A program made the translations under genes and the position numbers. Below, piece by piece: positions 3 to 16,290 of a DNA stretch of 64,000 bases (position 1 is its first letter; each line of letters opens with the position of its first letter). The DNA is taken from NCBI GenBank assembly GCA_045636665.1, contig JAZTXY010000086.1:2974-66973 (forward strand), written 5' to 3'. The notes below the pieces were generated by a model. That model made no database searches and had not been told where the DNA came from. It saw only the letters and a list, made by a program, of their open reading frames with translations. This stretch comes from Eubacteriales bacterium (GTDB lineage: Bacteria > Bacillota > Clostridia > Oscillospirales > CAG-382).

Positions 3-3000
3 GTTTTCGAGTATCAGTTCGAGATATCCGCACAGTTCCGTGACAAGATCACCGCAAAGGCGACCGATGTTTCCGGTTTGACATCCATGCTTACAGAAAC
101 TAATCATATCTTGGTTTTGGATACCGAATCTCCTATGCTCAACGTAGGATATGAATTTACCGAAAACCATAATATGGGCGCTATCATCTATTCCGATAAT
201 GACGTCAAAGTAATGTTTGAGATCAAGGAAGATAACTTTGACATCAGAAATACGGATAAGGGCCCCGTATTCATGATTGGCGAAAAGGTGACAGAGCTTG
301 TTTGGGCATATGATGATAAGCAAGACGTTTGGAAAGCAGAGTATGCGCTCTCGGGTGACGGCACTTATGCTTTGTCCTTGACGTTTGCGGATGCGTCCGA
401 AAACGAAATGGAGCAATATACAAAGACGGTCATCATCGACAGCGTTGATCCTGTTATCAATTGCATTTATGACATAACCGATCCTGTTAGAGATAATATT
501 TTCGACACCTCGCGCGTTGCAACCTTTACCATTACCGAAAGCAATTTCAATGCGCAAAACGTTGCTTTGACCGTAATTGCGAAGGATGTCGCAAAAGCTA
601 AAGTGGACATTTCTTCTAAGCGTTATGAAGAATACGTCAAGAACCCCGAGAATTGGACGGAAGACGATGGCGTTTGGACTTTAAAGTCAGAAGGTATGAA
701 GTTTGATATCGATGCAATTTATTCTATCGAGCTTGAATACACCGATCTCGCAAGCAATGCGGCTATTCCTTACAGCGAAGATTTCGCAATCGATCAGACC
801 GACCCCGAAAATATTAAGATTGAGTATTCTTCCAATCTTAAGTTCTGGGAAAAGGTTCTCGAAATGGTAACCTTTGGTTATTACTCCTATAACGAAGAAG
901 TGACTGTAACCGTGACGGCTGATGACGTAACCTCCGGTGTAGATCATTTCGAATGGACCTATACCAAGGAAGAAGGCGCAAGCGACATAAATGCCGCAGA
1001 GCTTGGCGATAGGATCGAAGCGGAACACGTTGTTTACAGCGACGACGGCAAGACTGCAACAGCCACCTTTACAATTCCTGCAAATATAAGGGGCTATGTT
1101 TCTGCAAAAGTAACCGATAAAGCAGGAAATTCAAGTGAAGTATCTGATTCTACAAGAATCAACGTTGTAGATACAATTGAGCCTACAAGAAAAATCGAGT
1201 TCAGCGAAGCGATTGTTTACGATAGAGCAACAATGAATGCTGTTGAAAGCTACGTTGAGGGCGATGACGTAATTCTTTATTATAATGAAAAAGCTACGGT
1301 AACAATCACCATTAACGAAGCTAACTTCTATTCCGAGGACGTAATTGTTACATTGACCAAGGTGGGCGAAGCAGATATCACCCCCGAGGTTACTTGGAAC
1401 GACAAAGAAGATGACGAGCACGTTGGTATGTTTACCATTACCGAAGAGGGCGATTATTTCGTAAAGATTGCGTATAAAGACCGTTCGGATAACGCAATGA
1501 AAGAATACACCTCGCAGGAAATTCATATCGACAAAACCGCACCTGTTATTTCGGTTGAATATTTTTCTGATGCGAATGCGCAGAACGATAAGTACTACAA
1601 GGAAGACCGCATTGCTACTATTACCGTTGTAGATCACAACTTCCTTGCGGATTTCGTTGAAATCGAGGTTACCGCTGTTGATCTGGGCAACGAGAGTGGT
1701 GACGCAGAAGCTATATGTAAGGCATTTGAAGTCGCGTTGAAGAACCGTGATAATTGGACTCACGACGGCGACGTTCATACTGCGGAAATCCCGTTCTCGG
1801 AGGATGCACAGTATGACTTTAAGATCAACTGCAAGGATATTGTCGGCAATGCGGCCGATACATACGAAGCAGATGCGTTCGTAGTTGACCATACTGCGCC
1901 CGTTGGGTTGAATATCGAATATAGTAAGCCTATCGTTAATCGAATTCTTGAAGCTATTACGTTCGGCTTCTATAAATCCGAGGTAACTGTAACCCTGACG
2001 GCTGACGACGTAACCTCGGGTGTGGATTATTTCGAATGGACCTACACCAAGGAAAAAGGCGCAAGCGACAAAAATGCCGCAGAGCTTGGCGGTAGGATTG
2101 ACGCAGAACACGTTGTTTACAGCAACGACGGCAAGACTGCAACTGCCACCTTTACAATTCCTGCAAATGTAAGGGGCTATATTTCTGCTAAAGTAACCGA
2201 TAAAGCGGGCAATCCCGCCGGCAAGACCGATGAAAATAACATTGCGATCGTGGTAGACGACCTTGCTCCCAACATTAAGGTTGAATATTCCTCTAAAACG
2301 GGAGTAGCAAACGACACCTATTATAACGATGACGTAACTGCTGCAATCACCATCACTGAAGCAAACTTCTTTGAGGGCGTAGAAGCAAAAGAAAGCTCTG
2401 ATGGCGTTGCGTTCGTAATTCATGATGTCGGAATTAAACTTACCGAAACTGACAATGAGGGTAATGTTACCGTTTATGAGTATCTGCCCGAAGGTTCTGC
2501 TCAAAAATACGAAGGTGCGATACCTAAGTATATCACCTGGACCGATAAGGGCGATGACCACTCCTTCGAAATCGTTTATGCGAAGGATGCCGACTACGTT
2601 TTGGAAATCGAATATACCGATCTTTCCACTAACGCAGCAGAAACTAACAAATCCAAGGTAATCACCGTTGATAAAATCGCTCCCATTGTAGACGTTAAGT
2701 ACGGTAACGAAACCGTTATTCATACTATCGATGGAAGAGATTACTTCAATGCTATTCAGACAGCTACCATCACCGTTGTGGAACATAACTTCCGAGCATC
2801 CGATTTCGTAGCTACTGTTGAAGCAAAGAACATTCTCGGTGAAGCAGTTACCACGGAAAACTTCAAAACGACCCTGTCGACCGATTCCAACTGGACTCAC
2901 GACGGCGACGTTCATACTGCAGAAATCACCTTCTCGGCTGATGCAAACTATACGTTCGATTACGTATTGAAGGACCTTGCTATTAATGATGCTGCCGAGT

Positions 3001-4892
3001 ATGAAACCGATCTCTTTACAGTTGACACAACAGTGCCCGAAACGCTTACGATTACCTATAGCGACAGCGTTCCCGATGCTTCCGGATACTACAACGATCA
3101 AGTGACTGTAACCGTTACCGCAGAGGACGAGACCGCGGGTGTCTACTACTTCGTTTACAGCTACATCAAGGGCAATGACGTAAGTGACGTTAACGCCGAG
3201 CTTATCGATGAAATAATCAGCGATGCAAACGGCAGAATCAAGCGCGAAGGCAAGAAGTCTATTGCAAGCTTTACGATTCCCAAATTGCTTCTTGACGATG
3301 ATAACCAGTTCAACGGTACGGTTGAATTTACAGCATTTGACCGAGCAGAGAACTACAGCAATATGCAGGACGATAAGGTGATCGTCGTCGATAACATCAA
3401 GCCTACAGCAACGGTTACATATAACGAGCCGGTGCAGAATGTAAACGGAATTTCCTACTATGCAGGAAATATCGATGCTAAGATCGTTATTAACGAAGCG
3501 AATTTCTTTAGTAAAGACGTAGTAGTAACCGTAACCAAGGACGGTGAAAAATATCCTGTAGACGTTAAGTGGAGCGATAACAGTGTTGACGTTCACACCG
3601 GAACGTTCACCTTGACCGAGGACGGTGATTATATCGTAACGGTTGAATACAAGGACCGCTCTGATAACCGAATGGATAAGTACACGTCCAACCGCCTCAC
3701 GCTGGACACCAAGGCGCCTACTGTAAACGCATCCAATATAAAGAACAATACTGCAAATAAGGATGAAAAGTACGGATTTTCTATCACGGCAAACGATATT
3801 AATCTCGATGCTACCACCTTTAAGCCTGTATTGAACGCTATTGTAAGAGGCGATGACGGCAGTTACGAGATCAAGACTATATCTCTTGGCGATATGAATA
3901 CCGTTGAGGAGGGTAGAACCTATACCTTTACGGTTGACAATTTAGTCGAGGATGCAGTTTACACTCTCGTTTGTACGCTTAAGGATATGTCCGGTAACGA
4001 GTGTACAAAGATAATTCTTGACGATAAGGCGTCCTATGATGAGGTGCGTTTCTCGATCAACAGAAACGGCTCTACGTTTGCTGTCGATAAAGATACCGAT
4101 GACCTTGTAAATCAGTACTACGTTTACAGCGTAGGCAAGGACGTGATCATCGAAGAAATCAACGTTGATCCGATTGAAGAGTACGTTGTTAAGCTTAACG
4201 GCGAAGCACTTAAAGAGGGCACCGACTATACCACCACCTTGTCCAACAAGGATGGCGAATGGAGCAAGCGTACTTACGTAATCTCTAAGAATCTCTTTGA
4301 ATCCGAGGGTGAGTACAAGATCGTTGTTGAGTCCACCGATAAAGCGGGAAGTTCTGCATACAGCGACGTTAAAAACCTTAACGTATCCTTCGTCGTAGAC
4401 CAAACCGCGCCGATGATTACCATCAGCGGACTTGAAAACGGCGGACGTTATCAGATCGAGGAACAGGTTGTAACCATCATTCCTACTGATAACGATGGCA
4501 GACTCTACAGCATCAAAGTAATCGTTCTTAATTCTGAAGGCGAGCCGCTTAAGGATGCCTCCGGCAATGACATCAGTGTAAGATTTGAAATGTCCGGCGA
4601 AGAATTCCTTGCCTATTTGGCCGAAAATGACGGTAAGGTTACATTTACCGTACCCGAAGGACTCGAAAATCAGGTTCAGATTGTTTGCGCTGACTATACG
4701 CTCAATGCAGGCGGCACCTTTAACGAGTTAAATGAGACGTTTACCAAGGTAACCGTATCTCAAAGCCAGTGGATCATTTTCTACGCAAATAAGCCGTTGT
4801 TCTACGGAACAATTGCTGGAATCGTTCTTTTGATCGGTGGCATTATTGCTCTGATCGTCTTTAAAAAGAAAAAGAACGCAGCAAAGAAGTAA
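3..4892 (+). CDS. Giant repetitive cell-surface protein (5' end upstream of window). It has at least 11 Ig-like/beta-sandwich modules, a C-terminal TM anchor and a basic tail.
   Basis: Frame 3 is open from nt 3 (VFEYQFEISAQFRDKITAKATDVSG...), so the ORF-track TTG at 78 is internal. Module-boundary motifs recur: DSVDPVI, DQTDPENI, DTIEPTR, DKTAPVI, DHTAPVG, DDLAPNI, DKIAPIV, DTTVPET, DNIKPTA, DTKAPTV, DQTAPMI. The C-terminal hydrophobic stretch LFYGTIAGIVLLIGGIIALIVF is followed by KKKKNAAKK. Stop TAA is at 4890-4892. Confidence 0.8.
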   Translation, partial: VFEYQFEISAQFRDKITAKATDVSGLTSMLTETNHILVLDTESPMLNVGYEFTENHNMGAIIYSDNDVKVMFEIKEDNFDIRNTDKGPVFMIGEKVTELVWAYDDKQDVWKAEYALSGDGTYALSLTFADASENEMEQYTKTVIIDSVDPVINCIYDITDPVRDNIFDTSRVATFTITESNFNAQNVALTVIAKDVAKAKVDISSKRYEEYVKNPENWTEDDGVWTLKSEGMKFDIDAIYSIELEYTDLASNAAIPYSEDFAIDQTDPENIKIEYSSNLKFWEKVLEMVTFGYYSYNEEVTVTVTADDVTSGVDHFEWTYTKEEGASDINAAELGDRIEAEHVVYSDDGKTATATFTIPANIRGYVSAKVTDKAGNSSEVSDSTRINVVDTIEPTRKIEFSEAIVYDRATMNAVESYVEGDDVILYYNEKATVTITINEANFYSEDVIVTLTKVGEADITPEVTWNDKEDDEHVGMFTITEEGDYFVKIAYKDRSDNAMKEYTSQEIHIDKTAPVISVEYFSDANAQNDKYYKEDRIATITVVDHNFLADFVEIEVTAVDLGNESGDAEAICKAFEVALKNRDNWTHDGDVHTAEIPFSEDAQYDFKINCKDIVGNAADTYEADAFVVDHTAPVGLNIEYSKPIVNRILEAITFGFYKSEVTVTLTADDVTSGVDYFEWTYTKEKGASDKNAAELGGRIDAEHVVYSNDGKTATATFTIPANVRGYISAKVTDKAGNPAGKTDENNIAIVVDDLAPNIKVEYSSKTGVANDTYYNDDVTAAITITEANFFEGVEAKESSDGVAFVIHDVGIKLTETDNEGNVTVYEYLPEGSAQKYEGAIPKYITWTDKGDDHSFEIVYAKDADYVLEIEYTDLSTNAAETNKSKVITVDKIAPIVDVKYGNETVIHTIDGRDYFNAIQTATITVVEHNFRASDFVATVEAKNILGEAVTTENFKTTLSTDSNWTHDGDVHTAEITFSADANYTFDYVLKDLAINDAAEYETDLFTVDTTVPETLTITYSDSVPDASGYYNDQVTVTVTAEDETAGVYYFVYSYIKGNDVSDVNAELIDEIISDANGRIKREGKKSIASFTIPKLLLDDDNQFNGTVEFTAFDRAENYSNMQDDKVIVVDNIKPTATVTYNEPVQNVNGISYYAGNIDAKIVINEANFFSKDVVVTVTKDGEKYPVDVKWSDNSVDVHTGTFTLTEDGDYIVTVEYKDRSDNRMDKYTSNRLTLDTKAPTVNASNIKNNTANKDEKYGFSITANDINLDATTFKPVLNAIVRGDDGSYEIKTISLGDMNTVEEGRTYTFTVDNLVEDAVYTLVCTLKDMSGNECTKIILDDKASYDEVRFSINRNGSTFAVDKDTDDLVNQYYVYSVGKDVIIEEINVDPIEEYVVKLNGEALKEGTDYTTTLSNKDGEWSKRTYVISKNLFESEGEYKIVVESTDKAGSSAYSDVKNLNVSFVVDQTAPMITISGLENGGRYQIEEQVVTIIPTDNDGRLYSIKVIVLNSEGEPLKDASGNDISVRFEMSGEEFLAYLAENDGKVTFTVPEGLENQVQIVCADYTLNAGGTFNELNETFTKVTVSQSQWIIFYANKPLFYGTIAGIVLLIGGIIALIVFKKKKNAAKK
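900..1130 (+). repeat. Copy 1 of a 231-nt intragenic direct repeat (encodes VTVTVTADDVTSGVDHFEWTYTKEEGASD...AKVTDKAGN)
   Basis: Hand alignment against 1983-2213 gives about 20 mismatches in 231 nt. The offset is 1083 nt, exactly 361 codons. Confidence 0.85.
1983..2213 (+). repeat. Copy 2 of the 231-nt intragenic direct repeat (VTVTLTADDVTSGVDYFEWTYTKEKGASD...AKVTDKAGN)
   Basis: See copy 1. A third, diverged copy (VTVTVTAEDETAGVYYFVYSYIKGNDVSD) follows one supermodule later. Confidence 0.85.
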
Positions 4893-4912: not shown

Positions 4913-4946
4913 ATCCCCAACCGTCATGTAAATGGCGGTTGGGGAT
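4913..4946 (+). terminator. GC-rich hairpin after the giant surface-protein gene (weak or partial terminator)
   Basis: 11-bp perfect stem atccccaaccg / cggttggggat (4913-4923 and 4936-4946) with a 12-nt loop. No clear U-tract follows (aaccctt). Confidence 0.35.
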
Positions 4947-5010: not shown

Positions 5011-5721
5011 ATGGTAGAAATATTTGTATGCGACGATGACATAAACATAACTGAATTCTTAAAATTCTTTATTATGAAGCACTTTGGGGACGAATATAAA
5101 GTTGTCGCGATGAATTGTTGCCGAGATCTGATAGGCATGATCGAATTTAACGAGCGAATCCCCGATATTTTAATAATGGACATCAATTTAAAGGACGGAA
5201 ACGGCATTGAGACCATTAAGCATCTGCAAAGGATGCATCCGACCCTTAAGGTTATTTATTTGACAGGCATAATCAATTATGCCACTGCTATTTTTGAAAC
5301 CAATCCTGCTTATTTTTTAGTAAAGCCAATAAACGAAAATCTTTTGATCGATGCGATCAGAAAGGTAAGCAGGGACATTGAATACGACAAATCTGACTCC
5401 ATTGTCGTCAAGACAAACGGGTCTGAAATATTATTAACCAGAAGAGATATAGTTTATGTGGAAAGCCGCGGACGCAAGCTGATATTGCATACGCTTGACG
5501 GCAAGATGATTGAAACTTATGAAAAAATGGACGATATTCAGCAACGGCTCGGTGCGCCGTTCGTTCGAAGCCATAAAAGTTTTCTCATTAATATGAAGCA
5601 TATCGTAGAAAGAACAAGCAGGGATTTTTATTTATCAAACGGCACCGTTTTGCCGATAAGCAAGACAAATTTCAAAGAGGCTAGGATCAAGTTTATATCA
5701 TATCTTGGAGAGGAAAAATGA
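5011..5721 (+). CDS. LytTR/AlgR-family response regulator (receiver + LytTR DNA-binding domain)
   Basis: Receiver context DILIMDINLKDGNGIE. The C-terminal LytTR signature is IVYVESRGRKLILHT...FVRSHKSFLINMKHI. There is a 4-nt ATGA overlap with the downstream kinase gene. Confidence 0.85.
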   Translation: MVEIFVCDDDINITEFLKFFIMKHFGDEYKVVAMNCCRDLIGMIEFNERIPDILIMDINLKDGNGIETIKHLQRMHPTLKVIYLTGIINYATAIFETNPAYFLVKPINENLLIDAIRKVSRDIEYDKSDSIVVKTNGSEILLTRRDIVYVESRGRKLILHTLDGKMIETYEKMDDIQQRLGAPFVRSHKSFLINMKHIVERTSRDFYLSNGTVLPISKTNFKEARIKFISYLGEEK

Positions 5722-7025
5722 GTCCGCTTTTATATGAGATAGTTGTGTATTTTATCGAGTCATTGATATCAGGGATTTTCTTGATTAATGTGCTTGAGGA
5801 GAAGTACTGTAAAGCGATTCACGCAGCGATATGGTGTGCTATTACGGCGGTATCGATTCTTTGTACCGAACCGTTCACACTGCCGCGACTCGGTTTGATT
5901 GCATTTTCGGAGCTTATCTATGCTTGCTTTATGTTTAAAGATAGGCTAAGAAAAAGAATCGGCGCGTTTTTCATCAAGGAACTGTTTCTGATTGCCGCCT
6001 ATGTAATCTCTTTTGCGGTGTGCTCGTTACTTATAGTTGGTCACGGAACGCACTATGTATACGACGGTTGCGAAGACTGTATTTGCCGTTTACTGTATTT
6101 GTTGATTTTCTCCGTTTTGACCTCGATTGTATTTCAATTCACAAAGCAAAAAAAGGGCACGAGGCTTCACCGGGTTGTCATAATGCAACTTCTCATAGGA
6201 TTGGGTGAAGCCACCGCTATTCTTGCTGTGGCGGTTGCATCAAACGGAACGATCACCTCAAAGAACTCTTGTTTTATCATCATAGCTACCGCTTGTATGG
6301 TAGTCGGAAATATTTTTATGGGGATGCTTGTTCCCTATTTACTTCGCAAGATTACGCTGTCAGCTAATTTAGATTACATCAAAAATCTCAGCGTTATGGA
6401 TTATAAATATTATGAAATGTCGGTTGCAAATAACAACAAGCTACGTTCTATTAAACACGACGTTTCAAATCACATACAAACGGCCTATTCGCTTTTCAGT
6501 AACGGAGAAACACAAAGGGGCATTGAGCTTATCAATGAATTGCGAACACGTTATGCCACTGTTGATCAGATGGTGTTTTGCAACAATCCCGTTGTAAACA
6601 TAATCCTCGCCAACAAAAAGAGCGAGGCTGAGGAAAAAAACATTGAAATGTGGATAAACGTAAAGGAAAACCCTGATTGCGCTTGGATTACCGATTTTGA
6701 TCTATCCACTGTTATTTGTAATTTGCTGGACAACGCTATCAGCGGTTGCATTTTCAGTGAGCAATCGCATCCGAGAATAAGCGTTGAAATACTAAGAAAG
6801 AATCGATATTTGGTTATAAAGGTACTCAATTCGTGTAAGGTGGGTATGAATATCGAAAGTACGGATAGGCTTGAAACTACAAAGGAAAATGGCGTTGTTC
6901 ACGGTTTGGGAATGCCGATTATTGCGAGCATTGCCCAAAAATATCGGGGCGATTTTGCGGTTTCTGCACAAAACGGAATATTTACCGCAACAGTTGCGAT
7001 GGCGATAAAGGAAGCCCGGATTTAA
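5718..7025 (+). CDS. Membrane sensor histidine kinase, AgrC/ComD-like (HPK10-type, GHKL ATPase)
   Basis: About 6 N-terminal hydrophobic helices. H-box RSIKHDVSNHIQT, N-box ICNLLDNAISG, G-box HGLGMPIIASIAQKY. Translationally coupled to the LytTR regulator. Confidence 0.8.
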   Translation: MSPLLYEIVVYFIESLISGIFLINVLEEKYCKAIHAAIWCAITAVSILCTEPFTLPRLGLIAFSELIYACFMFKDRLRKRIGAFFIKELFLIAAYVISFAVCSLLIVGHGTHYVYDGCEDCICRLLYLLIFSVLTSIVFQFTKQKKGTRLHRVVIMQLLIGLGEATAILAVAVASNGTITSKNSCFIIIATACMVVGNIFMGMLVPYLLRKITLSANLDYIKNLSVMDYKYYEMSVANNNKLRSIKHDVSNHIQTAYSLFSNGETQRGIELINELRTRYATVDQMVFCNNPVVNIILANKKSEAEEKNIEMWINVKENPDCAWITDFDLSTVICNLLDNAISGCIFSEQSHPRISVEILRKNRYLVIKVLNSCKVGMNIESTDRLETTKENGVVHGLGMPIIASIAQKYRGDFAVSAQNGIFTATVAMAIKEARI

Positions 7026-7147
7026 GTAACAAACAGGTGCTTGCCGACAATATGGTATTTAACAAACTAACAAGGAAAAACGCGACATAGTATTTAAAAT
7101 CAAAGACAAATGTTTTGCGGATAAAAAATTCAATAGAGGTGCGATGT

Positions 7148-8893
7148 ATGAACATCAATCAAGTATGGCCCGAATGGAACGAGGATTGCGTCCTTGGCGA
7201 GGGCTCGTTTGGTAAGGTTTACAGAGCGAAAAGAATGGAATACGGCGGAAGAGCTTTTTATTCCGCTATTAAGGTGATTTCGGTTCCGAAAAATCAGCAG
7301 GAAATCAAATTTGCCCGTTCTCAGGGTATGGATGATCAGGCGATATATAATTATTTTCGCGGCTTGGTAGATAACCTGCTTAACGAAATTACCCTGATGG
7401 ATAATTTAAAGGGTGCTAAGAATATCGTCGGTATCGAAGATTATAAAATCATCGAGCGAGAGGGAGAGATAGGCTGGGATATATTTATCCGTATGGAGTT
7501 GCTAACGCCGTTTGACAGCTTTATCTCTAATCCTGAATTTTCTCAGCTCGACGTTATAAGGTTGGGTGTTGATATTTGTACCGCGCTTGAGGTGTGTGAG
7601 CAAAACTTTATCGTTCACCGAGATATCAAGCCTGACAATATATTTATTTCCCGTTTTGGTGAATATAAGCTCGGCGATTTCGGTATTGCCAGAAAGTTAG
7701 AAACGACGCAGGCGAATCTCTCGCGCAAGGGTACGCTGAATTATATGGCACCGGAGGTCTACAAAAGCGAGGCATATAGCTCTAATGTGGATATTTATTC
7801 CTTGGGATTGGTGTTGTATACGCTATTGAATAATAACAGAATTGCGTTCCTTCCGCCTTATCCTCAACAAATAACCTACAAAGACAACGAGGAAGCATTG
7901 ACGAAGAGGCTGTCCGGTGAGCTGTTGACGCTCCCGTGTAATGCGAGCGCTTCTCTTGGTGCAGCAATCCTCAAAGCTTGTGCATACAGCCCGCAGGACC
8001 GTTATCAAACCGCTACAGAGTTCAAGAATGCGCTGATTACCGAATGGAACGTTTTGATTCAGTCGGGAGAGAATCGAGAGATTCAATCGGATTCGATGCG
8101 TTTCAGTGGTAATATGGATCAGAGACTGCAAAGCACGACCAATGATATGAATGCAAATGGAAGAGTTGTGGTTGACGAATATGTTCAAGGAACGACGGTG
8201 CTCGACCCAATGTACGGCGCGTACACGTCGGAACAGTTGCCCCCACAAAGTAATGTAATTGGCATTCCCGATACCTATTCTACTGCAAAATCGAGCAAAG
8301 GGTGCCGAATTTTTGCATGGCTGCTGTCACTTGTTGTTTGTGTTCTCGGTATTGTGCTGTTGTTTGACGGCGGAGACACTGCATTAGAATTATCGGTCGC
8401 CTTGTCATTGACAGGGCTTGGCTTGATCGTGATTATTGCCGACAGATGTAAGCTTGCGGTCGGTATTTCGGCTGTTTCGTTGTCACTTGTGTATATCGTC
8501 AGCGGACTGAACGCATTGTTTAGCGGTATGCAGGAATTGATTCCGCAAGCAATCGTTTTTATACTTTCCGGATCGTTGATGCTGTTCGGCGGCATAGTTA
8601 TTGTATCTCAGCGAGAGGTAAGGTTCGGAGGTGCATTAAGCTTATACGCTCTTATCGTCGAGTGGGTATATTACTTATATCGAATGATAAACGATGACTT
8701 TTATATTGAAGCGTGGCATATCTTTTATGGCGTCGCGGCTGTTGCGGTATTTGTATGGGCATATGGCTACAACAGCGCGTATAAACCCAAGGGAATAAAA
8801 AAGGTGTTGCATATCGCGGCTTACATATTGGCGGCTGTTGTGGCAATACAAGCAATTGTGTACCTGGTACGCCAATGTTCCGTTATTTTTTAA
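7148..8893 (+). CDS. Hanks-type Ser/Thr protein kinase with a C-terminal polytopic (about 7 TM) membrane domain
   Basis: Kinase motifs: G-loop GEGSFGKVYRA, AIKVI lysine, HRDIKPDNIF catalytic loop, DFGIA, YMAPEV. The C-terminal third (from about nt 8303) is seven hydrophobic segments. ATG 7148 sits 6 nt after agaggtg and is preferred over the ORF-track TTG 7115. Confidence 0.9.
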   Translation: MNINQVWPEWNEDCVLGEGSFGKVYRAKRMEYGGRAFYSAIKVISVPKNQQEIKFARSQGMDDQAIYNYFRGLVDNLLNEITLMDNLKGAKNIVGIEDYKIIEREGEIGWDIFIRMELLTPFDSFISNPEFSQLDVIRLGVDICTALEVCEQNFIVHRDIKPDNIFISRFGEYKLGDFGIARKLETTQANLSRKGTLNYMAPEVYKSEAYSSNVDIYSLGLVLYTLLNNNRIAFLPPYPQQITYKDNEEALTKRLSGELLTLPCNASASLGAAILKACAYSPQDRYQTATEFKNALITEWNVLIQSGENREIQSDSMRFSGNMDQRLQSTTNDMNANGRVVVDEYVQGTTVLDPMYGAYTSEQLPPQSNVIGIPDTYSTAKSSKGCRIFAWLLSLVVCVLGIVLLFDGGDTALELSVALSLTGLGLIVIIADRCKLAVGISAVSLSLVYIVSGLNALFSGMQELIPQAIVFILSGSLMLFGGIVIVSQREVRFGGALSLYALIVEWVYYLYRMINDDFYIEAWHIFYGVAAVAVFVWAYGYNSAYKPKGIKKVLHIAAYILAAVVAIQAIVYLVRQCSVIF

Positions 8894-8911
8894 TCGAGGA
8901 ATGAAACGGTT

Positions 8912-9679
8912 ATGACTTTTACGATAAATGCCGCTTGCGGCTCATTTATAGGTATGGGCCGCGGCAATAATGAGGATAATTTTTTCTTTAATAAAAAGCA
9001 TCTTCAAATCCCCAACAAGGGAATGAAAAATCCTATAAAATGCAGCAATGTCACTGATGACCCGGTCGTTTTTGCCGTTTTTGACGGTATGGGCGGAGAG
9101 AGTAAGGGCGAAGAAGCGGCTTGCTTATCGGCAGAGATTTTCGGCTCCGAATACAAAAAGCTTGAAGAGCTTGCAGTTTCGGGAAAAGCGTTTATGTACG
9201 AATGCTGTGAGAACGCTAATGCTGCGGTAAATCAGCTGAGACGCGATATGCAGCTTTCAGCGATTGGCAGTACCGTGGCGGCTGTATATTTATCTCAGGA
9301 TGATATTGTCGCTTGTAATATTGGTGACAGCAAGATATTCAGAATAAGAAGCAAGCAAATGATTCAAATTTCCGAGGATCATACCGACGAAAAAATTATG
9401 TCAGCTATCGGAATCAAAAAAAAGCCCGTTTTGCTTCAGTATATCGGTATTCCCGATACCGAAATGGCGATAGAACCCTACGTTTCGAAGGGTGTGCTTG
9501 AATCGGGAGATATATATGTTTTGTGCTCCGACGGCATAACAGATGTTATCGAGGCCTCCGAAATGTATAAAATTATCGGCGACCTTGATGCGGACGAGGC
9601 GGTAAGACAGCTTTTGACCGAGGTCGAGCGAAGAAACGGTGCAGATAATGCAACTGCGATCGTAATAAAGATAGCTTAA
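8912..9679 (+). CDS. PP2C/PPM-family Ser/Thr phosphatase
   Basis: Motifs FAVFDGMGGESKGEEAA, IGDSKIF, LCSDGITDV, GADNATAIVI. Starts 18 nt after the kinase gene. Confidence 0.88.
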   Translation: MTFTINAACGSFIGMGRGNNEDNFFFNKKHLQIPNKGMKNPIKCSNVTDDPVVFAVFDGMGGESKGEEAACLSAEIFGSEYKKLEELAVSGKAFMYECCENANAAVNQLRRDMQLSAIGSTVAAVYLSQDDIVACNIGDSKIFRIRSKQMIQISEDHTDEKIMSAIGIKKKPVLLQYIGIPDTEMAIEPYVSKGVLESGDIYVLCSDGITDVIEASEMYKIIGDLDADEAVRQLLTEVERRNGADNATAIVIKIA

Positions 9680-9694: not shown

Positions 9695-10933
9695 ATGGCT
9701 ATGCAGATAGATCAGGATCTAGTCCTTAAATTAAAAAAAATCGTTACTGCGGAATTACCTTTGAGTCAGCTGAGCGACGAACAGCTGACGATAGAAATCG
9801 AGAATATAGTCGAGGAACAAACCCGTGGACAGTATTTGTCCATCCAGACCAGAGTTAACCTTGTTCAGCAGGTATATAGCTCGATTCGCGGCTTCGGATT
9901 GCTGGATTCGATTATCAGTGATGATACGATCACCGAGGTTATGATCAACGGTCCGGACAATATATTTATTGAAAAATCCGGTAAGCTGACAAAGCTCAAT
10001 ATGAATTTTGAGAGTCAACGAAGACTTGAGGATATCATTCAAAGGATCGTTGGTATGGCCGGCAGAGAGGTAAACCAAGCAAATCCTATTTGTGATACCC
10101 GTTTGCCCGATGGATCGCGTGTTAACGTTGTGTTGCCGCCGATTTCTTTGTGCGGACCTATTCTTACTATCCGTAAGTTTTCTAAGAATCCGATGACCGT
10201 TGAAAAACTTATTGAATACGGCTCGATTACAAGGGAAATTGCCGATAAACTTGAATTGCTTGTTAAAGCAAAATACAACATTTTTATCAGTGGTGGTACC
10301 GGTTCGGGTAAAACCACGTTTCTCAATGCGCTGTCCAACTATATTCCGAAGGACGAGCGTGTTATCACCATCGAGGACTCTGCGGAGCTTCAGATCACCG
10401 GCGTCGAAAACCTTGTAAGCCTTGAAACGAGAAATGCCAATGCATCCGGCGCGGGCGAAATTTCTATACGAGAGCTTATCAAGTCTTCGCTCCGTATGCG
10501 TCCCGAAAGAATCGTTGTCGGCGAAGTACGTGGAGGTGAAGCGTTGGATATGCTTCAGGCGATGAACACAGGTCATGACGGCTCACTGTCCACCGGCCAC
10601 GCAAACTCCACTGAAGATATGCTCAGCCGTCTTGAAACAATGGTGCTTCAGGGTGCATCAGGCTTGCCGTTGGAAGCGATCCGACATCAAATAGGCTCGG
10701 CAATAGATATTATAATTCACCTTTCGCGTTTGAGAGACAAGTCAAGAAAGACTATGGAGATCACAGAGGTAGTCGGTTACAAGGACGGTCAGATCATTCT
10801 TAACCCGTTATATGTTTTCCAAGAGGATGAAAACTCCACTTTGGAGAAGGTATCCGGTGGCTTGGTCAGAACCGAGAATCCCTTGAAAAACGATTTCAAA
10901 CTGAAACTGTCGGGAATCAAGACCAAGATATAA
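9695..10933 (+). CDS. tadA: CpaF/TadA-family Tad pilus secretion ATPase
   Basis: Walker A GGTGSGKTT, Walker B/Asp box RVITIEDSAEL, RPERIVVGEVRGGEALDMLQAMNTGHDGSLSTGHANS. RBS aaggaga lies 7 nt upstream. Confidence 0.92.
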   Translation: MAMQIDQDLVLKLKKIVTAELPLSQLSDEQLTIEIENIVEEQTRGQYLSIQTRVNLVQQVYSSIRGFGLLDSIISDDTITEVMINGPDNIFIEKSGKLTKLNMNFESQRRLEDIIQRIVGMAGREVNQANPICDTRLPDGSRVNVVLPPISLCGPILTIRKFSKNPMTVEKLIEYGSITREIADKLELLVKAKYNIFISGGTGSGKTTFLNALSNYIPKDERVITIEDSAELQITGVENLVSLETRNANASGAGEISIRELIKSSLRMRPERIVVGEVRGGEALDMLQAMNTGHDGSLSTGHANSTEDMLSRLETMVLQGASGLPLEAIRHQIGSAIDIIIHLSRLRDKSRKTMEITEVVGYKDGQIILNPLYVFQEDENSTLEKVSGGLVRTENPLKNDFKLKLSGIKTKI

Positions 10934-11069
10934 GGTTGTTTTTTACATTATACGGTCGAATTTTATCGAATTGGTTGTTTAACGAGAGCATATATTATTA
11001 TATTATTATGATAAAGATATGCATATATAGGTATGAAAGTTAGCGCATATATAGAAAGGAAGAGAACAT

Positions 11070-12125
11070 ATGAAAATTAAGCTTGCGATGCTGGAAAGCG
11101 ATCCTTCGTATCTTCGCCGTGTTGTTCCTATGTTCAACAGCAAGTACGCCGAGGAGCTTGAGATATATTCTTTTACGGATGTAGATGCCGCGATGTCTTG
11201 CTTGGAAGAAAAAAAGATCGACGTGTTCCTGGCAAGTGACAGTTTCAAAATAGATTTTGCTCAAATTCCCAAACGATGCGGGTTTGCATATATGGTCGAG
11301 AGTCTTGATATCAACTCTATTGACAATAGAAAGGCGATTTGTAAATTCCAAAAGGGTGAGCTGATCTACAAGCAGATCTTGAGCATCTATTCAGAGCACG
11401 TGCCCAATATCTCGGGGATCCCATCGAATCAGAACGGTATGATGAAGACCATCGCGTTTTGTTCTCCCTGCGGAGGAGTTGGAACCTCTACTGCTGCTGC
11501 AGCTTGTGCCATTGCATTGGCTAATGCAGGTCAAAGAGTCCTCTATCTGAACGGAGAAATCTATGGCGATGCGGATGTTTTCTTCAGCTGTGACGGACAA
11601 TTTGATTTCAGCGACGTTATTTACGCGGTAAAGAGCAATAAGACAAATAGAGCAATGAAATTGCAGAGCACGGTTAAGCAAGACCAGACTGGAGTTTACT
11701 ATTACTCTTCCGTAAGGGTGCCGTTGGATATTATGGAAATGAGTCCGGACGATTATATGACGCTTCAAAACGAGCTTAGGTCGTTGGGTTGCTATGATTA
11801 CGTTGTTATGGATGTTGAATTTCCGAAAACACAATCTGCATTCAAGCTTTTTGAGTGCTGTAATTCCATCGTCGTCGTTAGTGATGCTTCCGAAATTTCC
11901 GAAGCGAAGATAAATAAGGCGATTCGAGGAATCCAGATTCTTGACGGACAATCGGATTTTGCGATTCAGCCCAGAATGTGGCTTTTGAAAAACAGAGCGA
12001 CTGTAAACGAGCTTTCACAAACCGAACTTCGTATACTCGGTGCGTTTCCAACGTATGAATCGGTTTCTTCCGCTCGTATGGCAAAGCAACTTTCCTTGTC
12101 CGACGTATTCAACCAGTTAATGTAA
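11070..12125 (+). CDS. tadZ: TadZ/CpaE-like protein: receiver-like N-domain plus an atypical MinD/ParA ATPase domain
   Basis: The N-terminal CheY-like fold lacks an obvious acidic pocket. The P-loop reads CSPCGGVGTSTAAAAC, a deviant Walker A without the lysine, as in TadZ-type proteins. It sits between tadA and tadB. Confidence 0.7.
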   Translation: MKIKLAMLESDPSYLRRVVPMFNSKYAEELEIYSFTDVDAAMSCLEEKKIDVFLASDSFKIDFAQIPKRCGFAYMVESLDINSIDNRKAICKFQKGELIYKQILSIYSEHVPNISGIPSNQNGMMKTIAFCSPCGGVGTSTAAAACAIALANAGQRVLYLNGEIYGDADVFFSCDGQFDFSDVIYAVKSNKTNRAMKLQSTVKQDQTGVYYYSSVRVPLDIMEMSPDDYMTLQNELRSLGCYDYVVMDVEFPKTQSAFKLFECCNSIVVVSDASEISEAKINKAIRGIQILDGQSDFAIQPRMWLLKNRATVNELSQTELRILGAFPTYESVSSARMAKQLSLSDVFNQLM

Positions 12126-12142
12126 AAGGGATGTGAAATTCA

Positions 12143-12997
12143 ATGAGTAAAAAGAAGAAAGCCCATACAGAGTCGTTGTATGAGGTTTCGGGCACTAACC
12201 GAAAGATGATAAACTACAAGGTTTATCGTATGACAGCCAATGAAAAAGCATTGTACCTCATCTTGGCGTTCGTCATCGGCGCGGCTGTTGCATACCTGTT
12301 CTACGGCGGCATTGGAAAAGATGAGCACGGCAATGCAACGGTTGTTACATATGTTTGCGATATTGTAATCATGACCATCGTCGGATTAGCGGCGGCAAAG
12401 CTGTTTATGCCGATTCGCAAGGAGCGGATCATTGCAGAGCGAAAGAAAAAACTGAGAAGTCAGTTTATAGACCTGCTCGATTCCTTGGCAACTTCTATTT
12501 CTTCGGGTAAAAACGTTCCCAATGCATTTATGGCCGCACGCGAGGATTTGCTCGTTCAGTATCAACCGGACGCGTTCATTGTTCAAGAGGTCGATAACAT
12601 AATCAGCGGCATACAGAATAATATCGACGTAGGTAGTATGCTGTTGAACTTCGGTGAAAGAAGCGGAATTCAAGATATCAGAACCTTCGGCAGAGTTTTT
12701 GAAACGGCATATTCAAAGGGCGCAAACCTAAAGGAAGTGATCCGCAACAGCCATGTGATACTTTCTAACAAGTGTGAAATAGAAGCGGAGATAGAAACGA
12801 AGGTTGCTTCAAATAAAAATGAGCAGAACATTATGATTGTCATGCCCGTAATTTTGATTTTGATGATCAAAATGGCCGGTTCTGATTTTGCTGCAAATTT
12901 CACTACACCTACCGGAATTGTTTGTACGACAATCGCGGTCGGCGCGTTCGTTATAGCATATTTGATTGGCAGAAAAATTTTGAATATCGAGGTGTAG
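12143..12997 (+). CDS. tadB: TadB-like type II secretion system F-family inner-membrane platform protein
   Basis: Has the T2SSF-like soluble helical domain flanked by TM helices, and lies immediately upstream of a paralogous gene (the typical tadB-tadC pair). Confidence 0.75.
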   Translation: MSKKKKAHTESLYEVSGTNRKMINYKVYRMTANEKALYLILAFVIGAAVAYLFYGGIGKDEHGNATVVTYVCDIVIMTIVGLAAAKLFMPIRKERIIAERKKKLRSQFIDLLDSLATSISSGKNVPNAFMAAREDLLVQYQPDAFIVQEVDNIISGIQNNIDVGSMLLNFGERSGIQDIRTFGRVFETAYSKGANLKEVIRNSHVILSNKCEIEAEIETKVASNKNEQNIMIVMPVILILMIKMAGSDFAANFTTPTGIVCTTIAVGAFVIAYLIGRKILNIEV

Positions 12998-13000
12998 GTT

Positions 13001-13879
13001 GTGGAGTTGATTTTAAATATTGTTATTTTGACTCTGTCGCTTTTCTCGGGTCTTTCGTTCGTGTTTTTGCTTCTAACCTCCGGTGAATTTGAAGAATACA
13101 TAAAACCGCTTAATAAAAAGACCTTTATGATGTCTGAAATTTACGGTGCAGGTTTTAAGTTTATGAAGCTGTTTAGATTTGAGTTCAAAAACAGAAGTGC
13201 AAACCAGCTTCGTGAAAAAACAGTGATTCTGTACGGCGAAAGATATGCGGATTATTATATGCGTGTTTTTTACGCTCAAAAAATCAGCATTATATATCTT
13301 TTCTTCACTATAGGCTGCGGTCTTTGTGCCTTGGCAGAGGGCACGGACAAGCTTTTGCTTTTGGCTGTTGTACTTGTTGTATGCGGCACTTTGTACTATT
13401 ATTTCCAGACGTTGCCGGCTACCCTGGTTAAGCAAAGAAGCATTCGTTTTATGGACGAATTCCCCAACGCTGTGTCCACGATTGCGCTTTTGGTTAATTC
13501 CGGTATGATTCTTCGCGAAGCATGGAGCGAGGTTGCTATGTCTTCCGAAACGGAATTGTATATGGAAATGCGTAGAGTGACCGAAGACATAGATAACGGT
13601 ATTGCGGAAGCGGATGCTCTATACAGCTTTGGAAACCGCTGTGTTACACCCGAAATCAAAAAATTCACCGCGCTTATTGTTCAGGGCCTTGAGAAGGGCA
13701 GTCGAGATCTCGCGTCTGCTCTTAGAAACCAGACCGATGAAATGTGGCAGTTAAAAAAGCAAAACACTCTTAAACGCGGAGAACTCGCTTCCGGTAAGCT
13801 GATGATTCCGCTTATGATTATGTTTGTCGGTATCCTTGTAATGGTAATGGGACCGATAATGACTAACTTGGGTCTTTAA
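13001..13879 (+). CDS. tadC: TadC-like type II secretion system F-family platform protein
   Basis: GTG start 3 nt after the tadB stop. Same TM-helical-TM architecture as the preceding gene. Confidence 0.75.
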   Translation: MELILNIVILTLSLFSGLSFVFLLLTSGEFEEYIKPLNKKTFMMSEIYGAGFKFMKLFRFEFKNRSANQLREKTVILYGERYADYYMRVFYAQKISIIYLFFTIGCGLCALAEGTDKLLLLAVVLVVCGTLYYYFQTLPATLVKQRSIRFMDEFPNAVSTIALLVNSGMILREAWSEVAMSSETELYMEMRRVTEDIDNGIAEADALYSFGNRCVTPEIKKFTALIVQGLEKGSRDLASALRNQTDEMWQLKKQNTLKRGELASGKLMIPLMIMFVGILVMVMGPIMTNLGL

Positions 13880-13931
13880 GAGAGATCTCTTTAAGATAAA
13901 TAAACAAACAATATTTTGGAGGTATACAAAA

Positions 13932-14150
13932 ATGTCTAAACTGGCTACTAAACTTTGCATCAAGGGACTTCAGGCGAGGATGAAGTTGAGAAAACTTTGG
14001 AAAAACGAAAGTGGTGAGGCGAACATCATCGCTATCATTCTTGTTCTTGCTATCGTCATTGCACTTGCTATTATCTTTAGAACTCAGTTAACAAATTTGT
14101 TTAACAAGATTTGGGGTTCTTTGTTCGAAGACGTAGATAACGTAATTTAA
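13932..14150 (+). CDS. flp: Flp-type (type IVc) prepilin, atypical mature N-terminus
   Basis: 72 aa. A charged leader ends in KNESG and is followed by the hydrophobic helix EANIIAIILVLAIVIALAIIF. A strong RBS ggagg lies 8 nt upstream. Located between tadC and the prepilin peptidase. Confidence 0.7.
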   Translation: MSKLATKLCIKGLQARMKLRKLWKNESGEANIIAIILVLAIVIALAIIFRTQLTNLFNKIWGSLFEDVDNVI

Positions 14151-14162
14151 GCAGAAAAGCTT

Positions 14163-14196
14163 GACCTGCCGCTGTATTAAAATACAGCGGCAGGTC
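14163..14196 (+). terminator. Perfect 14-bp GC-rich hairpin just after the pilin gene (candidate partial terminator/attenuator or mRNA stabiliser)
   Basis: gacctgccgctgta / tacagcggcaggtc with loop ttaaaa. No U-tract follows. Confidence 0.4.
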
Positions 14197-14224
14197 GGCA
14201 ATCAAATTTAGGGAGATATACCCA

Positions 14225-14902
14225 ATGCATTATTTGTTGTTTTTATTGATTGCCGCCCTTTCGACCTTGTTGGTTGTTTATGTTTCTTCTTTTATGGGCG
14301 TGATCAACATTGGAAAATTCAATATTTATAAACCTTGTGAAGAGAAAATAACACCCTATAAGGGTAAATCTTTAACTTTGCTTATAATAATCTGCTTTGC
14401 ATGCTTTTTTGCAGCTCAGATTTCTTTATATATTAACACCTCGATTATAAATCTTATAAAGCTGTTCGGATTGGCTGTTATTGTTATAAGCGCCGGCATT
14501 ATTGACTCGAAGAGAAGGATCATTCCTAATTTATTGATTATTAGCGGCTTGGTTTTTCGCATCGCCATTTATATTTACGAGATAGTGGGACCAACAGACG
14601 ATTTAATGACAGTTTTAACCAATGATCTTATTGGTTTTGCAATTGGCTTTGTGTTTCTCGCTGTGGTATCCTTGCTTTCAAAAGGCGCACTTGGATTCGG
14701 TGATGCAAAGCTATTTGGTATCATCGGGTTGGTAAGCGGATCGTTTTGCACCTACAGTACGTTGTTTGTGAGCTTAGTGATTTCCGCCGTTGTCTCTCTT
14801 ATCAATATTTCTCGAAAGAAAATGGGACGCAAAGATGCATTCCCATTTGGACCTTGCATCGCAGTAGGTTATATGTTCGTTGTATTTTTAACCAGTTATT
14901 AG
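14225..14902 (+). CDS. tadV: A24-family prepilin peptidase, TadV/CpaA type (no N-terminal Cys-rich domain)
   Basis: Polytopic membrane protein carrying the two aspartyl motifs GIIDSKRRIIPN and ALGFGDAKLF. Confidence 0.85.
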   Translation: MHYLLFLLIAALSTLLVVYVSSFMGVINIGKFNIYKPCEEKITPYKGKSLTLLIIICFACFFAAQISLYINTSIINLIKLFGLAVIVISAGIIDSKRRIIPNLLIISGLVFRIAIYIYEIVGPTDDLMTVLTNDLIGFAIGFVFLAVVSLLSKGALGFGDAKLFGIIGLVSGSFCTYSTLFVSLVISAVVSLINISRKKMGRKDAFPFGPCIAVGYMFVVFLTSY

Positions 14903-14921
14903 AAACGGAGCGTTGAACGGA

Positions 14922-16274
14922 ATGAAAAACAATAAAGTATTAATTATCATAGGCATTATTCTTCTTAATATTTTGGTTGTTTATATGATTGGCCAAAGCT
15001 TGATGGGCAAAACAAGTCAGTATGATTTGACTCTTTCCGAGGCGCGCTCTTTGTCCGAGCAGGAGTTGTGTTCTAAATCGATTGCGAAATATAATGAAGC
15101 GATTATGTTAAAGGACACGCTTGATGTTCGTATCGAGATGATCGGTGTTTACGAAAAAGGGATCGATATTGGTGAATTTACTAATATTTATGACATTGTT
15201 ACATCCGTAACCTCTATTGTGGATGCCTATCGACAAGAACCGCGCGCGTATGAAGCTGCTTGTGAGATGTTTTTGAAATATGATAAATTCGAAGAATGCG
15301 CCAACGTCTTAATGAAAGCGAGAGATCTTCTTGTTACCTCCGATAGAATTGAGGAGCTTCGTAGCCAGGTAAGATATCAGTACACGAAATATTTTGCAAT
15401 GTATACCGAGGTGCTTCCCGTTTTTGACGGTATGTATACCGTCAAGACTGAATATGAGTACACATTCCTTAACGATCAGGGAGCCCCTGATTTTGATGGC
15501 ACCTTTGTCGAAGCTTCTTCCTTTTCTGAAGGCTACGCATTCGTTAAAGGGTCCCATCCCGACGGCACTGACCGATGCATCATAATTAATAAGGCGGGTG
15601 AACGCCAGGCATATCTTAACGGCGTAGAAACGTCTTCCGGCGTAGGACGTGCTAAAAATGCCGAGGGTAGTGACGTTCTCTTGCTTGCATGCAAGGTTGG
15701 CGATAGATATAAATACTTTGATATCAACGGCAAGGAAACTTTCGGCGATTATGCGTTTGCAGGCAGATTTAGAAACAATGTTGCTGCTGTTATGGAATCT
15801 GAGGGCAATTGGAAGCTCATTGACGGAACCGGTAAAGCAATAACCGATGTAACGTTTTCCGACGTGGTGCTTAATGAGTTTGATGAATGTGCAGCAAAGG
15901 GATTTATCTTTGCCAAGGTGGGAGATAAATACTACATATACGATTTGAACGCCAAAAGAATAGGCGACTTTGCTTGCGACGGTGCAAAGGCGTTTGTTGA
16001 TGATTACGCTGCGTTTAAGATAGGGGATCAATGGGGTTTTGTAGGAACAGACGGAGAGATCCTCATCGAGCCACAGTATGAAGATGCGAAGTCTTTCTCA
16101 AACAGTATGGGTGCTGTAAAAACCGGCGCAGGATGGGTATTTATTAATCCTAAAAACGAAATTGTTATTCAAGAAATTTTTGAAGATGTTGACTATCTTA
16201 ACGACAAGGGGATCTGCTTCGTAAAGACCGGAGGATATTGGTCTTATTTGAAGATGTATTATACCGGAAAATAA
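14922..16274 (+). CDS. Membrane-anchored protein with a helical (TPR-like) region and WG/KWG beta-propeller-type repeats
   Basis: N-terminal TM helix VLIIIGIILLNILVVYMIG. Repeats of the type GYAFVKGS..., WKLIDGTGK, WGFVGTDGEILIEPQYEDAKSF, GWVFINPKNEIVI. The ORF-track start is TTG 14913, but ATG 14922 is more plausible. Confidence 0.6.
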   Translation: MKNNKVLIIIGIILLNILVVYMIGQSLMGKTSQYDLTLSEARSLSEQELCSKSIAKYNEAIMLKDTLDVRIEMIGVYEKGIDIGEFTNIYDIVTSVTSIVDAYRQEPRAYEAACEMFLKYDKFEECANVLMKARDLLVTSDRIEELRSQVRYQYTKYFAMYTEVLPVFDGMYTVKTEYEYTFLNDQGAPDFDGTFVEASSFSEGYAFVKGSHPDGTDRCIIINKAGERQAYLNGVETSSGVGRAKNAEGSDVLLLACKVGDRYKYFDINGKETFGDYAFAGRFRNNVAAVMESEGNWKLIDGTGKAITDVTFSDVVLNEFDECAAKGFIFAKVGDKYYIYDLNAKRIGDFACDGAKAFVDDYAAFKIGDQWGFVGTDGEILIEPQYEDAKSFSNSMGAVKTGAGWVFINPKNEIVIQEIFEDVDYLNDKGICFVKTGGYWSYLKMYYTGK

Positions 16275-16290
16275 TGTGAGGTGATACAGT

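Follow-up and report, generated by a model that had tools for sequence, protein, structure and literature searches.

A second kinase/phosphatase pair attached to a tad operon and a putative threonine-phosphorylation circuit in a Tad and type VII secretion supercluster

Subtypes c to j of type VII secretion systems (T7SS) were defined by Garrett, Higginson & Palmer (2024, Microlife 5:uqae013, PMC11217815). In their scheme the parts of T7SSe are TseA1, TseA2, TseB (YukD), TseC (EssC), the membrane kinase TseD and the PPM phosphatase TseF, together with TseH (a small protein with one transmembrane (TM) helix and an unstructured cytoplasmic tail), the giant immunoglobulin (Ig)-like protein TseI, TseJ (DUF6382-FHA) and TseK (one TM helix and a zinc ribbon). 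The FHA domain of TseC keeps its phosphothreonine (pThr) motifs in 90-99% of cases, and control by Thr phosphorylation was already proposed there for T7SSc/d/e/f/j, citing the precedent of the type VI secretion system (T6SS). Adjacency to Tad pilus genes was reported only for T7SSg and T7SSh and stated not to be found at T7SSf loci. Here we have analyzed a stretch of 64,000 nucleotides (hereafter the window) from a Clostridia genome (Eubacteriales bacterium, contig JAZTXY010000086.1), in which an earlier note had described a Hanks-type Ser/Thr kinase and a PP2C phosphatase in front of tadA and three FHA domains farther downstream. By sequence comparison, this kinase (D') and phosphatase (F') are a second, clade-restricted kinase/PPM pair, always located directly before tadA, within a cluster to which a Thr-phosphorylation circuit appears well tied.

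The secretion block of the window classifies as T7SSe, because the EssC N-terminus matches TseC and the first of two TseJ-like proteins (J1) matches TseJ. The former was 39% identical to the published TseC string (E 1e-21), with no match to the TsfC, TsjC, TsiC or Staphylococcus aureus EssC strings, and J1 was 56% identical to the published TseJ fragment. TseA1/A2, TseB and TseJ were recognized by Pfam, and TseK by TM prediction plus a sub-threshold zinc ribbon (Zn_Ribbon_1 E 0.0013, 18.9 bits against a cut-off of 25). The C-terminal 1604 amino acids (aa) of a TseI-like protein, with a TM anchor (aa 1572-1598) and weak Big_13/Big_3_3 Ig matches, lie in the window, the N-terminus falling beyond its edge. 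The locus shares with T7SSe the two WXG100 proteins, YukD, an EssC FHA with pThr motifs, DUF6382-FHA, a zinc-ribbon protein with one TM helix, the TM-anchored C-terminal part of a giant Ig protein and a kinase and PPM phosphatase within the cluster, as well as the Thr-phosphorylation hypothesis. It differs in that the kinase and phosphatase are not TseD/TseF and come in the order kinase then phosphatase, before tadA and 13 kb from TseJ/TseC, and in having a complete Tad operon nested in the cluster and two TseJ paralogues (J1 and J2).

Judged from its sequence, D' is a catalytically intact membrane Ser/Thr kinase (catalysis being predicted) with a seven-TM anchor. Its start is best placed at the ATG at 7148, just preceded by AGAGGTG, and the gene ends at 8893. 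The Pfam Pkinase match (E 2.2e-37, 129.3 bits against a cut-off of 31.7) identifies it as Hanks-type, and the Gly-loop GEGSFG, the AIK Lys42, Glu80, HRDIKPDN, DFG and APE are all invariant in the alignment of 58 orthologues. An AlphaFold2 (AF2) model built with 58 sequences (pLDDT 75.5) showed the kinase domain, a disordered linker and seven TM helices, the helices being predicted with confidence. In F' the metal-binding motifs of the PPM family (RGNNED, DGMGG, GDS, SDG and DN) can be seen in the translation; the protein also matches SpoIIE in Pfam, and its best solved relatives, tPphA, Stp1, PstP and the T6SS phosphatase PppA (6jkv), are all bacterial PPMs. The gap between kinase and phosphatase is exactly 18 nucleotides (nt) and that between phosphatase and tadA exactly 15 nt, so that the catalytic motifs and both spacings given in the earlier note were confirmed. 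D' and F' are probably co-transcribed with tadA. In all five contexts examined (the window and the loci L001, L088, L089 and L090) the order D'-F'-tadA is kept, with gaps of about 9-18 nt. Kinase/PPM/FHA modules were likewise found at 59 of the 80 related loci. The placing of the pair at the head of the cluster in the earlier note, on the other hand, did not hold, since the co-directional array goes on upstream through a LytTR system and the giant Ig gene to the window edge.

The best NCBIfam names for the pair are Stk1-family kinase and Stp1/IreP phosphatase, as would be expected from a housekeeping pair of the Stk1/PrkC-Stp1 type that lies beside the cluster by coincidence. However, both proteins scored far under the equivalog cut-offs (114.6 against 450 for D' and 116.7 against 230 for F') and the Pfam scan found no PASTA repeats in D', and on these grounds the housekeeping PASTA-kinase reading was rejected. 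The seven-TM tail, to which Pfam assigns no family even at E<=10, is unique, with only 17 representative relatives at 50% clustering among 1.84 billion proteins, and the synteny with tadA is invariant. A coincidental housekeeping pair is in our view extremely improbable.

For the comparison with the canonical TseD/TseF pair, one genome per species was scanned with a TseJ alignment, and all window proteins were mapped by tblastn onto the resulting 80 loci. The canonical order, J followed by PP2C and then by the kinase, was found at 59 of them, with Ig-like matches coming next in 50 of these 59, and occurs in Neobacillus, Ectobacillus, Clostridium, Lachnospiraceae, Oscillospiraceae and Solobacterium. 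The D' catalytic domain scored only 35-51 bits against 63 canonical kinases, which gave 244-678 bits among themselves, and this is lower than its score against Mycobacterium tuberculosis PknB (82 bits). Similarly, F' scored 27-58 bits against canonical phosphatases and 63 bits against tPphA. D' has seven TM helices, whereas TseD has a single one with a helical ectodomain, and neither TseD nor TseF was recognized in the window pair. Furthermore, L088, L089 and L090, whose kinases are 59-75% identical to D', each carry both pairs, in the order PP2C, one-TM kinase, two small membrane proteins, Ig giant, seven-TM kinase, PP2C, TadA and TadZ. The window and L001 follow this arrangement, with a LytTR two-component system added after the Ig gene. 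It is because of the low scores against the canonical set and the presence of both pairs together in these three loci that we consider D'F' a second pair, a detail that is new. That the window pair could be a relocated TseD/TseF was rejected by the same bit scores and by the loci with both pairs. In the relatives, the giant Ig gene (product of 2,867-3,808 aa) comes after the canonical PP2C/kinase pair and two genes for small membrane proteins, and the window Ig product aligns to aa 1919-3507 of the 3517-aa protein of L088 with 54% identity. From these relatives, the canonical pair probably lies just past the 5' edge of the window. TseH, absent from the window and found in relatives between the canonical kinase and the Ig gene, would have its equivalent position upstream of that edge as well.

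The three FHA domains that had been described in the earlier note, in J1, EssC and J2, were all recovered well above the Pfam cut-off of 20.7 bits. Their description as canonical proved right for EssC, which has all three pThr-binding motifs of the set GR, SxxH and NG (PMC11217815, Table S1), reading GR, SGNH and NG, and not for J1 (GK, SRSH, N-H) and J2 (GK, SRCH, N-K), in which a Lys takes the position of the phosphate-binding Arg. All ~91 J-type relatives examined likewise read G-K at the site of the phosphate-contacting G-R, which is, at the sequence level, a conserved class feature of the J-type FHA domains. Because of this replacement the binding of pThr by J-type domains is uncertain. 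The top weak NCBIfam match for the FHA of J1 was the OdhI model. As for the other domain of the J proteins, an AF2 model of DUF6382 built from the two window sequences (pLDDT 76.6, pTM 0.74) matched with Foldseek the T7SSb pseudokinases YukC (6z0f) and EssB (4ano) with a TM-score of ~0.55, and also the N-terminal domain of the enterococcal type IV secretion protein TraF and many protein kinases. Searching the PDB sequences with a profile built from 74 DUF6382 domains gave no match, even at E<=10. The model suggests that the J proteins are probably soluble EssB-like pseudokinase adaptors that also bear an FHA domain.

These features could also be accommodated if the FHA domains were phospho-independent scaffolds, as in T7SSb, with DUF6382 binding the EssC FHA constitutively and the kinase/phosphatase pair signalling elsewhere (transcription or envelope homeostasis). 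The EssB/YukC-like fold of DUF6382, the missing canonical Arg of the J-type FHA domains and the phospho-independent EssB-EssC binding of T7SSb cited in PMC11217815 would all fit such an arrangement. Nevertheless, the window EssC FHA keeps all three pThr motifs, unlike T7SSb EssC, in which the conservation of GR and SxxH is 0% (PMC11217815, Table S1), conserved Thr motifs stand beside the FHA domains, and kinase, phosphatase and FHA genes are consistently linked (59/80 loci), making a purely scaffolding role improbable.

The Thr motif, [G/E]TTVL, is found in both D' and J1. In the linker of D' it lies in a conserved island (NTTNDM..NGR.VVDEY.QGTTVL) in which T349, T350 and L352 are at least 90% conserved and the AF2 pLDDT falls below 50; of 116 D' orthologues, 99 retain TT[VI]L while the flanking linker is variable. 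J1 has ETTVL twice (24350-24364 and 24386-24400), 15-40 aa before its FHA, J2 has no TTVL motif, and the published TseJ fragment has GTTVL twice. Actually, a tandem [G/E]TTVL 15-40 aa ahead of the FHA was found in 45 of 97 J-like open reading frames (ORFs), including every Tad-linked one and the published TseJ. TseH-like proteins, the small one-TM proteins following the canonical kinase, carry two to five tandem copies in their predicted cytoplasmic tail, and all + strand ORFs with at least two copies across 88 loci were either J-like or TseH-like. Tandem ETTVL in a TseH-like protein can be seen at L088 (9007-9528), with equivalents in L030, L043, L054, L056 and L071. The activation loop of most canonical kinases contains DTT[VC]LGT, and TTVL therefore resembles the autophosphorylation site of these kinases themselves. 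The idea that the motif is present either in the activation loop or in the J linker, in a complementary fashion, was discarded, since Tad-linked loci have both when TTCL loops are counted. In GarA/OdhI, an ETTS N-terminal to the protein's own FHA domain acts as a phospho-switch. FHA domains are reported, by Durocher in 2000, to read pThr with selectivity at position +3, and pT-T-V-L places a Leu at +3. We propose TTVL as a candidate phospho-acceptor and FHA-docking site. The motif is not described in PMC11217815, and a literature search on TTVL with FHA, on T7SSe follow-ups and on Tad with FHA and kinase found nothing beyond Garrett et al. 2024.

Putting these elements together, the explanation that we favour, with a probability of roughly 0.55, is a phospho-switch operated by D' and F' through TTVL and the FHA domains of J1, J2 and EssC. 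D' would autophosphorylate the Thr of its disordered juxtamembrane GTTVL and phosphorylate the ETTVL repeats just upstream of the J1 FHA. The resulting pThr-x-x-Leu sites would be read by the FHA of J1, J2 and/or EssC, and the recruitment or release of J1 and J2, through their EssB-like pseudokinase domain, could make the T7SS and/or the Tad system depend, in assembly or activity, on the state of the pilus or envelope, with F' resetting the switch. What the sequences show are the genes, their domains and catalytic residues, the conservation of the motif, the synteny and the lack of orthology with TseD/TseF; TTVL phosphorylation, FHA binding, the signal sensed and the output are inferred. The suggestion of the earlier note that a kinase/phosphatase/FHA circuit may gate the Tad/T7SS apparatus stands in part. 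A tie of such a circuit to the cluster is supported by synteny (5/5), by the modules at 59/80 loci and by the Thr motif shared between kinase and J1; the visible pair, on the other hand, is a separate one attached to tad, and two of the FHA domains are without the canonical Arg. The general hypothesis was, moreover, already published (PMC11217815), and what is new is the second, seven-TM pair wired to the tad operon, the module in Tad clusters without nearby EssC, the TTVL motif and the two non-canonical FHA domains.

Several points weigh against a phospho-switch of this kind. Besides the Lys of the J-type FHA domains, the FHA domains of T7SSb EssC bind the EssB pseudokinase without phosphorylation (cited in PMC11217815), and the likeness of DUF6382 to EssB comes from a model based on two sequences with the pLDDT and TM-score given above. 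In addition, D'F' are not orthologues of TseD/TseF, and a canonical pair, probably located beyond the 5' edge of the window, could be what actually regulates the T7SS. Finally, the TseJ/F/D/H/I module exists with Tad but no nearby EssC, and its output may be the pilus and not secretion.

The last two points lead to the distribution of the module, which by synteny accompanies either Tad or a T7SS by itself, or the two together, while D'F' tracks tadA. At 18 loci with the order J-PP2C-kinase at least two Tad genes were found upstream. In Anaerocolumna xylanovorans the module is inside the Tad cluster (TadZ-TadA-J-PP2C-kinase-x-x-Ig-DUF5702), and in L091 it heads the Tad cluster, with housekeeping genes upstream. 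In L087 and L092 no EssC lies within 10 kb downstream of the Ig gene, in Solobacterium (L061) and L045 the stretch visible downstream of that gene (2.8 kb and 0.4 kb, respectively) has unrelated genes, and in L082 integrase and helix-turn-helix genes border the Tad operon upstream. At the other extreme, in Bacilli and in L004 the arrangement is EssC-YukD-WXG-WXG-x-J-PP2C-kinase-...-Ig, and the locus has no Tad genes. Within the clade of the window, what comes after the D'F'-Tad-J1 unit is T7SSe in the window and a T7SSf-like set in L048/L088. This distribution and the tracking of tadA by D'F' support a functional link of the phospho-module to the cluster.

The same observations are compatible with D'F' acting on the Tad pilus alone, where TadZ, TadA or J1 might be phosphorylated to control assembly or retraction, with T7SSe under the canonical TseD/TseF upstream of the Ig gene. 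D'-F' always abuts tadA, J1-type proteins always directly follow the Tad genes, the D'F'-Tad-J1 unit is joined to different secretion systems, and TseJ/F/D/H/I modules exist in or beside Tad clusters without nearby EssC. Against it, the Tad core proteins of the window have neither a TTVL motif nor an FHA domain, the only FHA readers are J1, EssC and J2, two of the three in the T7SS block, and J1, which starts 5 nt after the last Tad-associated gene, is 65 nt from essC. Regulation of the pilus alone is possible, and we judge it unlikely. A broader proposal, which we put forward tentatively and regard as doubtful in its present form, is that TseJ/F/D/H/I and the seven-TM pair make up a portable Thr-phosphorylation module, not specific for T7SS, built around the giant Ig protein and using a [G/E]TTVL code read by FHA domains; where Tad and T7SS are both present, it would couple pilus contact to the firing of T7SS toxins.

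The T7SSf-like set of L048 (10356-20747), on the same contig as L088, lies directly downstream of a complete Tad cluster and consists of a second J (DUF6382-FHA), a TadZ-like AAA_31 ATPase, YukD, an EssC whose FHA match is weak, LXG and DUF4176. Phage-type integrase genes border Tad/phospho-module clusters in L082 (8465-9583), L084 (8419-9531, next to MobL/TraG-like conjugation genes) and L089 (4992-6113), a hint that mobile islands may be the carriers of such clusters.

The features of the cluster are collected in Table 1. D'F' sit in a co-directional supercluster of ~37 kb: the 31 genes from position 1 to 38748 are all on the + strand with gaps of at most 162 nt, in the order giant Ig, (LytTR system), D', F', Tad genes, J1, TseC, B, A1, A2, J2, TseK and substrates. 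The Tad system has TadA, TadZ, TadB/TadC, Flp, a prepilin peptidase and a TadE-like protein, with Pfam matches to T2SSE (4.3e-60), TadZ-like_ARD (3.5e-46), T2SSF (twice), Peptidase_A24 and TadE. The Flp-like ORF has 72 aa, and a Flp1_like call occupies the corresponding position in L001, L082 and L088. All six Tad-associated products have an N-terminal TM or prepilin-like helix by TM prediction, and their genes are syntenic in other Tad loci. Co-transcription across the array is plausible from the gene arrangement. In consensus scans the interval from 4.5 to 38.8 kb had no strong terminator on the + strand, and promoter and terminator scans, performing no better than on shuffled sequence, gave no operon boundaries except for a strong terminator with a 16-bp stem at 38839-38873.

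Table 1 Features of the Tad/T7SSe supercluster in the window
Feature	Position (nt)	Strand	Description
Giant Ig-like surface protein (TseI-like), 3' part	1-4892	+	Frame open from base 3; cut by the 5' edge of the window
LytTR response regulator and GHKL histidine kinase	5011-7025 (5011-5721; 5718-7025)	+	Pfam Response_reg + LytTR; HATPase_c_5
Hanks Ser/Thr kinase D'	7148-8893	+	Catalytic domain aa 1-306, disordered linker aa 308-378, seven TM helices aa 384-580
Conserved island in D' linker	8132-8209	+	GTTVL at 8189-8203
PPM/PP2C phosphatase F'	8912-9679	+	PP2C_2 E 4.4e-13 (49.7 bits, cut-off 24); PP2C E 3.3e-10 (40.5 bits, cut-off 20.3)
Tad pilus core	9695-14902	+	TadA ATPase 9695-10933, TadZ 11070-12125, TadB 12143-12997, TadC 13001-13879, Flp pilin 13932-14150, prepilin peptidase 14225-14902
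Six Tad-associated secreted/pseudopilin-like genes	14913-22982	+	WG_beta_rep, Flg_new, p225, DUF5702, TadE-Flg_new, p236
J1, TseJ-like cytoplasmic protein	22988-24712	+	DUF6382 aa 5-163 (5.8e-20), Pro/Gln linker, two ETTVL, FHA
J1 FHA	24482-24682	+	aa 499-565; Pfam FHA E 1.5e-14, 54.6 bits
EssC/TseC ATPase	24778-29370	+	TIGR03928 (Firmicute EssC equivalog) score 1037.7, cut-off 778.4
EssC FHA	25126-25311	+	aa 117-178; Pfam FHA E 3.1e-16, 60.0 bits
YukD/TseB	29367-29618	+	Pfam YukD 5.8e-06
WXG100 TseA1 and TseA2	29633-29941; 29959-30258	+	Pfam WXG100 6.6e-16; 2.1e-14
773-aa membrane-anchored protein and 210-aa helical protein (p210)	30414-33419	+	No family in Pfam or NCBIfam
J2, second TseJ-like protein	33422-34585	+	DUF6382 2.2e-11, Zn_Ribbon_1 (zinc ribbon), FHA
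J2 FHA	34352-34552	+	aa 311-377; Pfam FHA E 1.7e-13, 51.3 bits
TseK-like protein	34601-34894	+	One TM helix and C-terminal zinc ribbon; fits the published TseK description
Candidate T7SS substrate (393 aa) and DUF4176 partner	34927-36391	+	DUF4176 E 1.8e-27; TM prediction

The Agr-like LytTR/GHKL system between the Ig gene and D' is present in L001 and absent in L088, L089 and L090, and it looks like a recent regulatory insertion given that these three loci are otherwise syntenic. An inverted repeat with 15-nt arms (4913-4946) is located right behind the stop codon of the Ig gene, and in the 122-nt gap before the kinase a direct repeat ATrGTATTTAA appears twice, 35 nt apart (7052-7097). A perfect hairpin with a 15-bp stem (14163-14196) begins 13 nt after flp and could be an attenuator or stabiliser setting the stoichiometry of the pilin. 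In the T7SSe block, the 773-aa protein and p210 gave no Pfam or NCBIfam family, and p210 is conserved ahead of TseJ in other T7SSe loci (L002, L004, L063, L067 and L079). The 393-aa protein is helical at its N-terminus and carries a TM hairpin at the C-terminus, and its gene overlaps the DUF4176 gene by 8 nt; the two are likely a T7SS substrate/partner pair, and LXG/DUF4176 pairs are found at the equivalent position in L048. At the distal end of the block (36403-36879), distant from the true prepilin peptidase at 14225, there is an orphan membrane protein with only A24_N, the N-terminal zinc-finger domain of prepilin peptidases. The region from 39000 to 64000 contains unrelated carbohydrate and housekeeping genes, among them a MatE exporter, GalT, a GHL10 hydrolase, a 1243-aa RicinB/Big_2 surface protein, an amylase-like enzyme, a DeoR regulator, an AlkZ-like glycosylase and an AlgX-like protein.

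The locus bears on the post-translational switching of Gram-positive T7SS and on the frequent adjacency of T7SS and Tad. It offers a defined kinase/phosphatase pair joined to the tad operon, a short Thr motif that predicts phospho-sites and one canonical FHA domain on the secretion ATPase. Five proposed "core" components of T7SSe travel with Tad clusters without nearby EssC, which would change the assignment of components. The hosts are abundant gut and rumen Clostridia (Oscillospiraceae and Lachnospiraceae), for which adhesion and competition mediated by LXG toxins are ecologically relevant. If the portable module were real, Gram-positive bacteria would have in it a counterpart of the phosphorylation pathway by which T6SS contact sensing works.

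With that pathway, as known from the H1-T6SS of Pseudomonas aeruginosa (PpkA, PppA, Fha1) and from Agrobacterium tumefaciens (PpkA, TssL, Fha), the locus has in common that genes for a Hanks kinase of the membrane, for a PP2C phosphatase and for a reader with an FHA domain lie within a secretion cluster. It differs in coming from a Gram-positive organism and in that the FHA readers number three, of which one is fused to the secretion ATPase. None of the T6SS families (TssB/C, Hcp, VgrG, TssM/L) appeared among the Pfam matches of the 51 window proteins, and the likeness is one of analogy, without common descent. GarA/OdhI of Actinobacteria have, like J1, a Glu-Thr-Thr in a disordered segment just N-terminal to the FHA, whereas the ETTVL described here is usually in tandem and goes with a pseudokinase-like DUF6382 domain, a Lys for Arg in the FHA and a context of pilus and secretion instead of control of the tricarboxylic acid cycle. 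The EssB/YukC-EssC pair of T7SSb resembles the J proteins in that the DUF6382 model superposes on YukC and EssB and that they are encoded beside an FHA-bearing EssC. However, J1 and J2 are soluble, without TM helix or extracellular domain, have an FHA of their own and show no similarity at the sequence level in the profile search of the PDB. Finally, the PASTA pairs Stk1/PrkC-Stp1 of Firmicutes also place a Hanks kinase beside a PPM phosphatase, whereas D'F' are without PASTA and below the NCBIfam cut-offs, have the opposite gene order and a seven-TM anchor, and are always found beside tadA.

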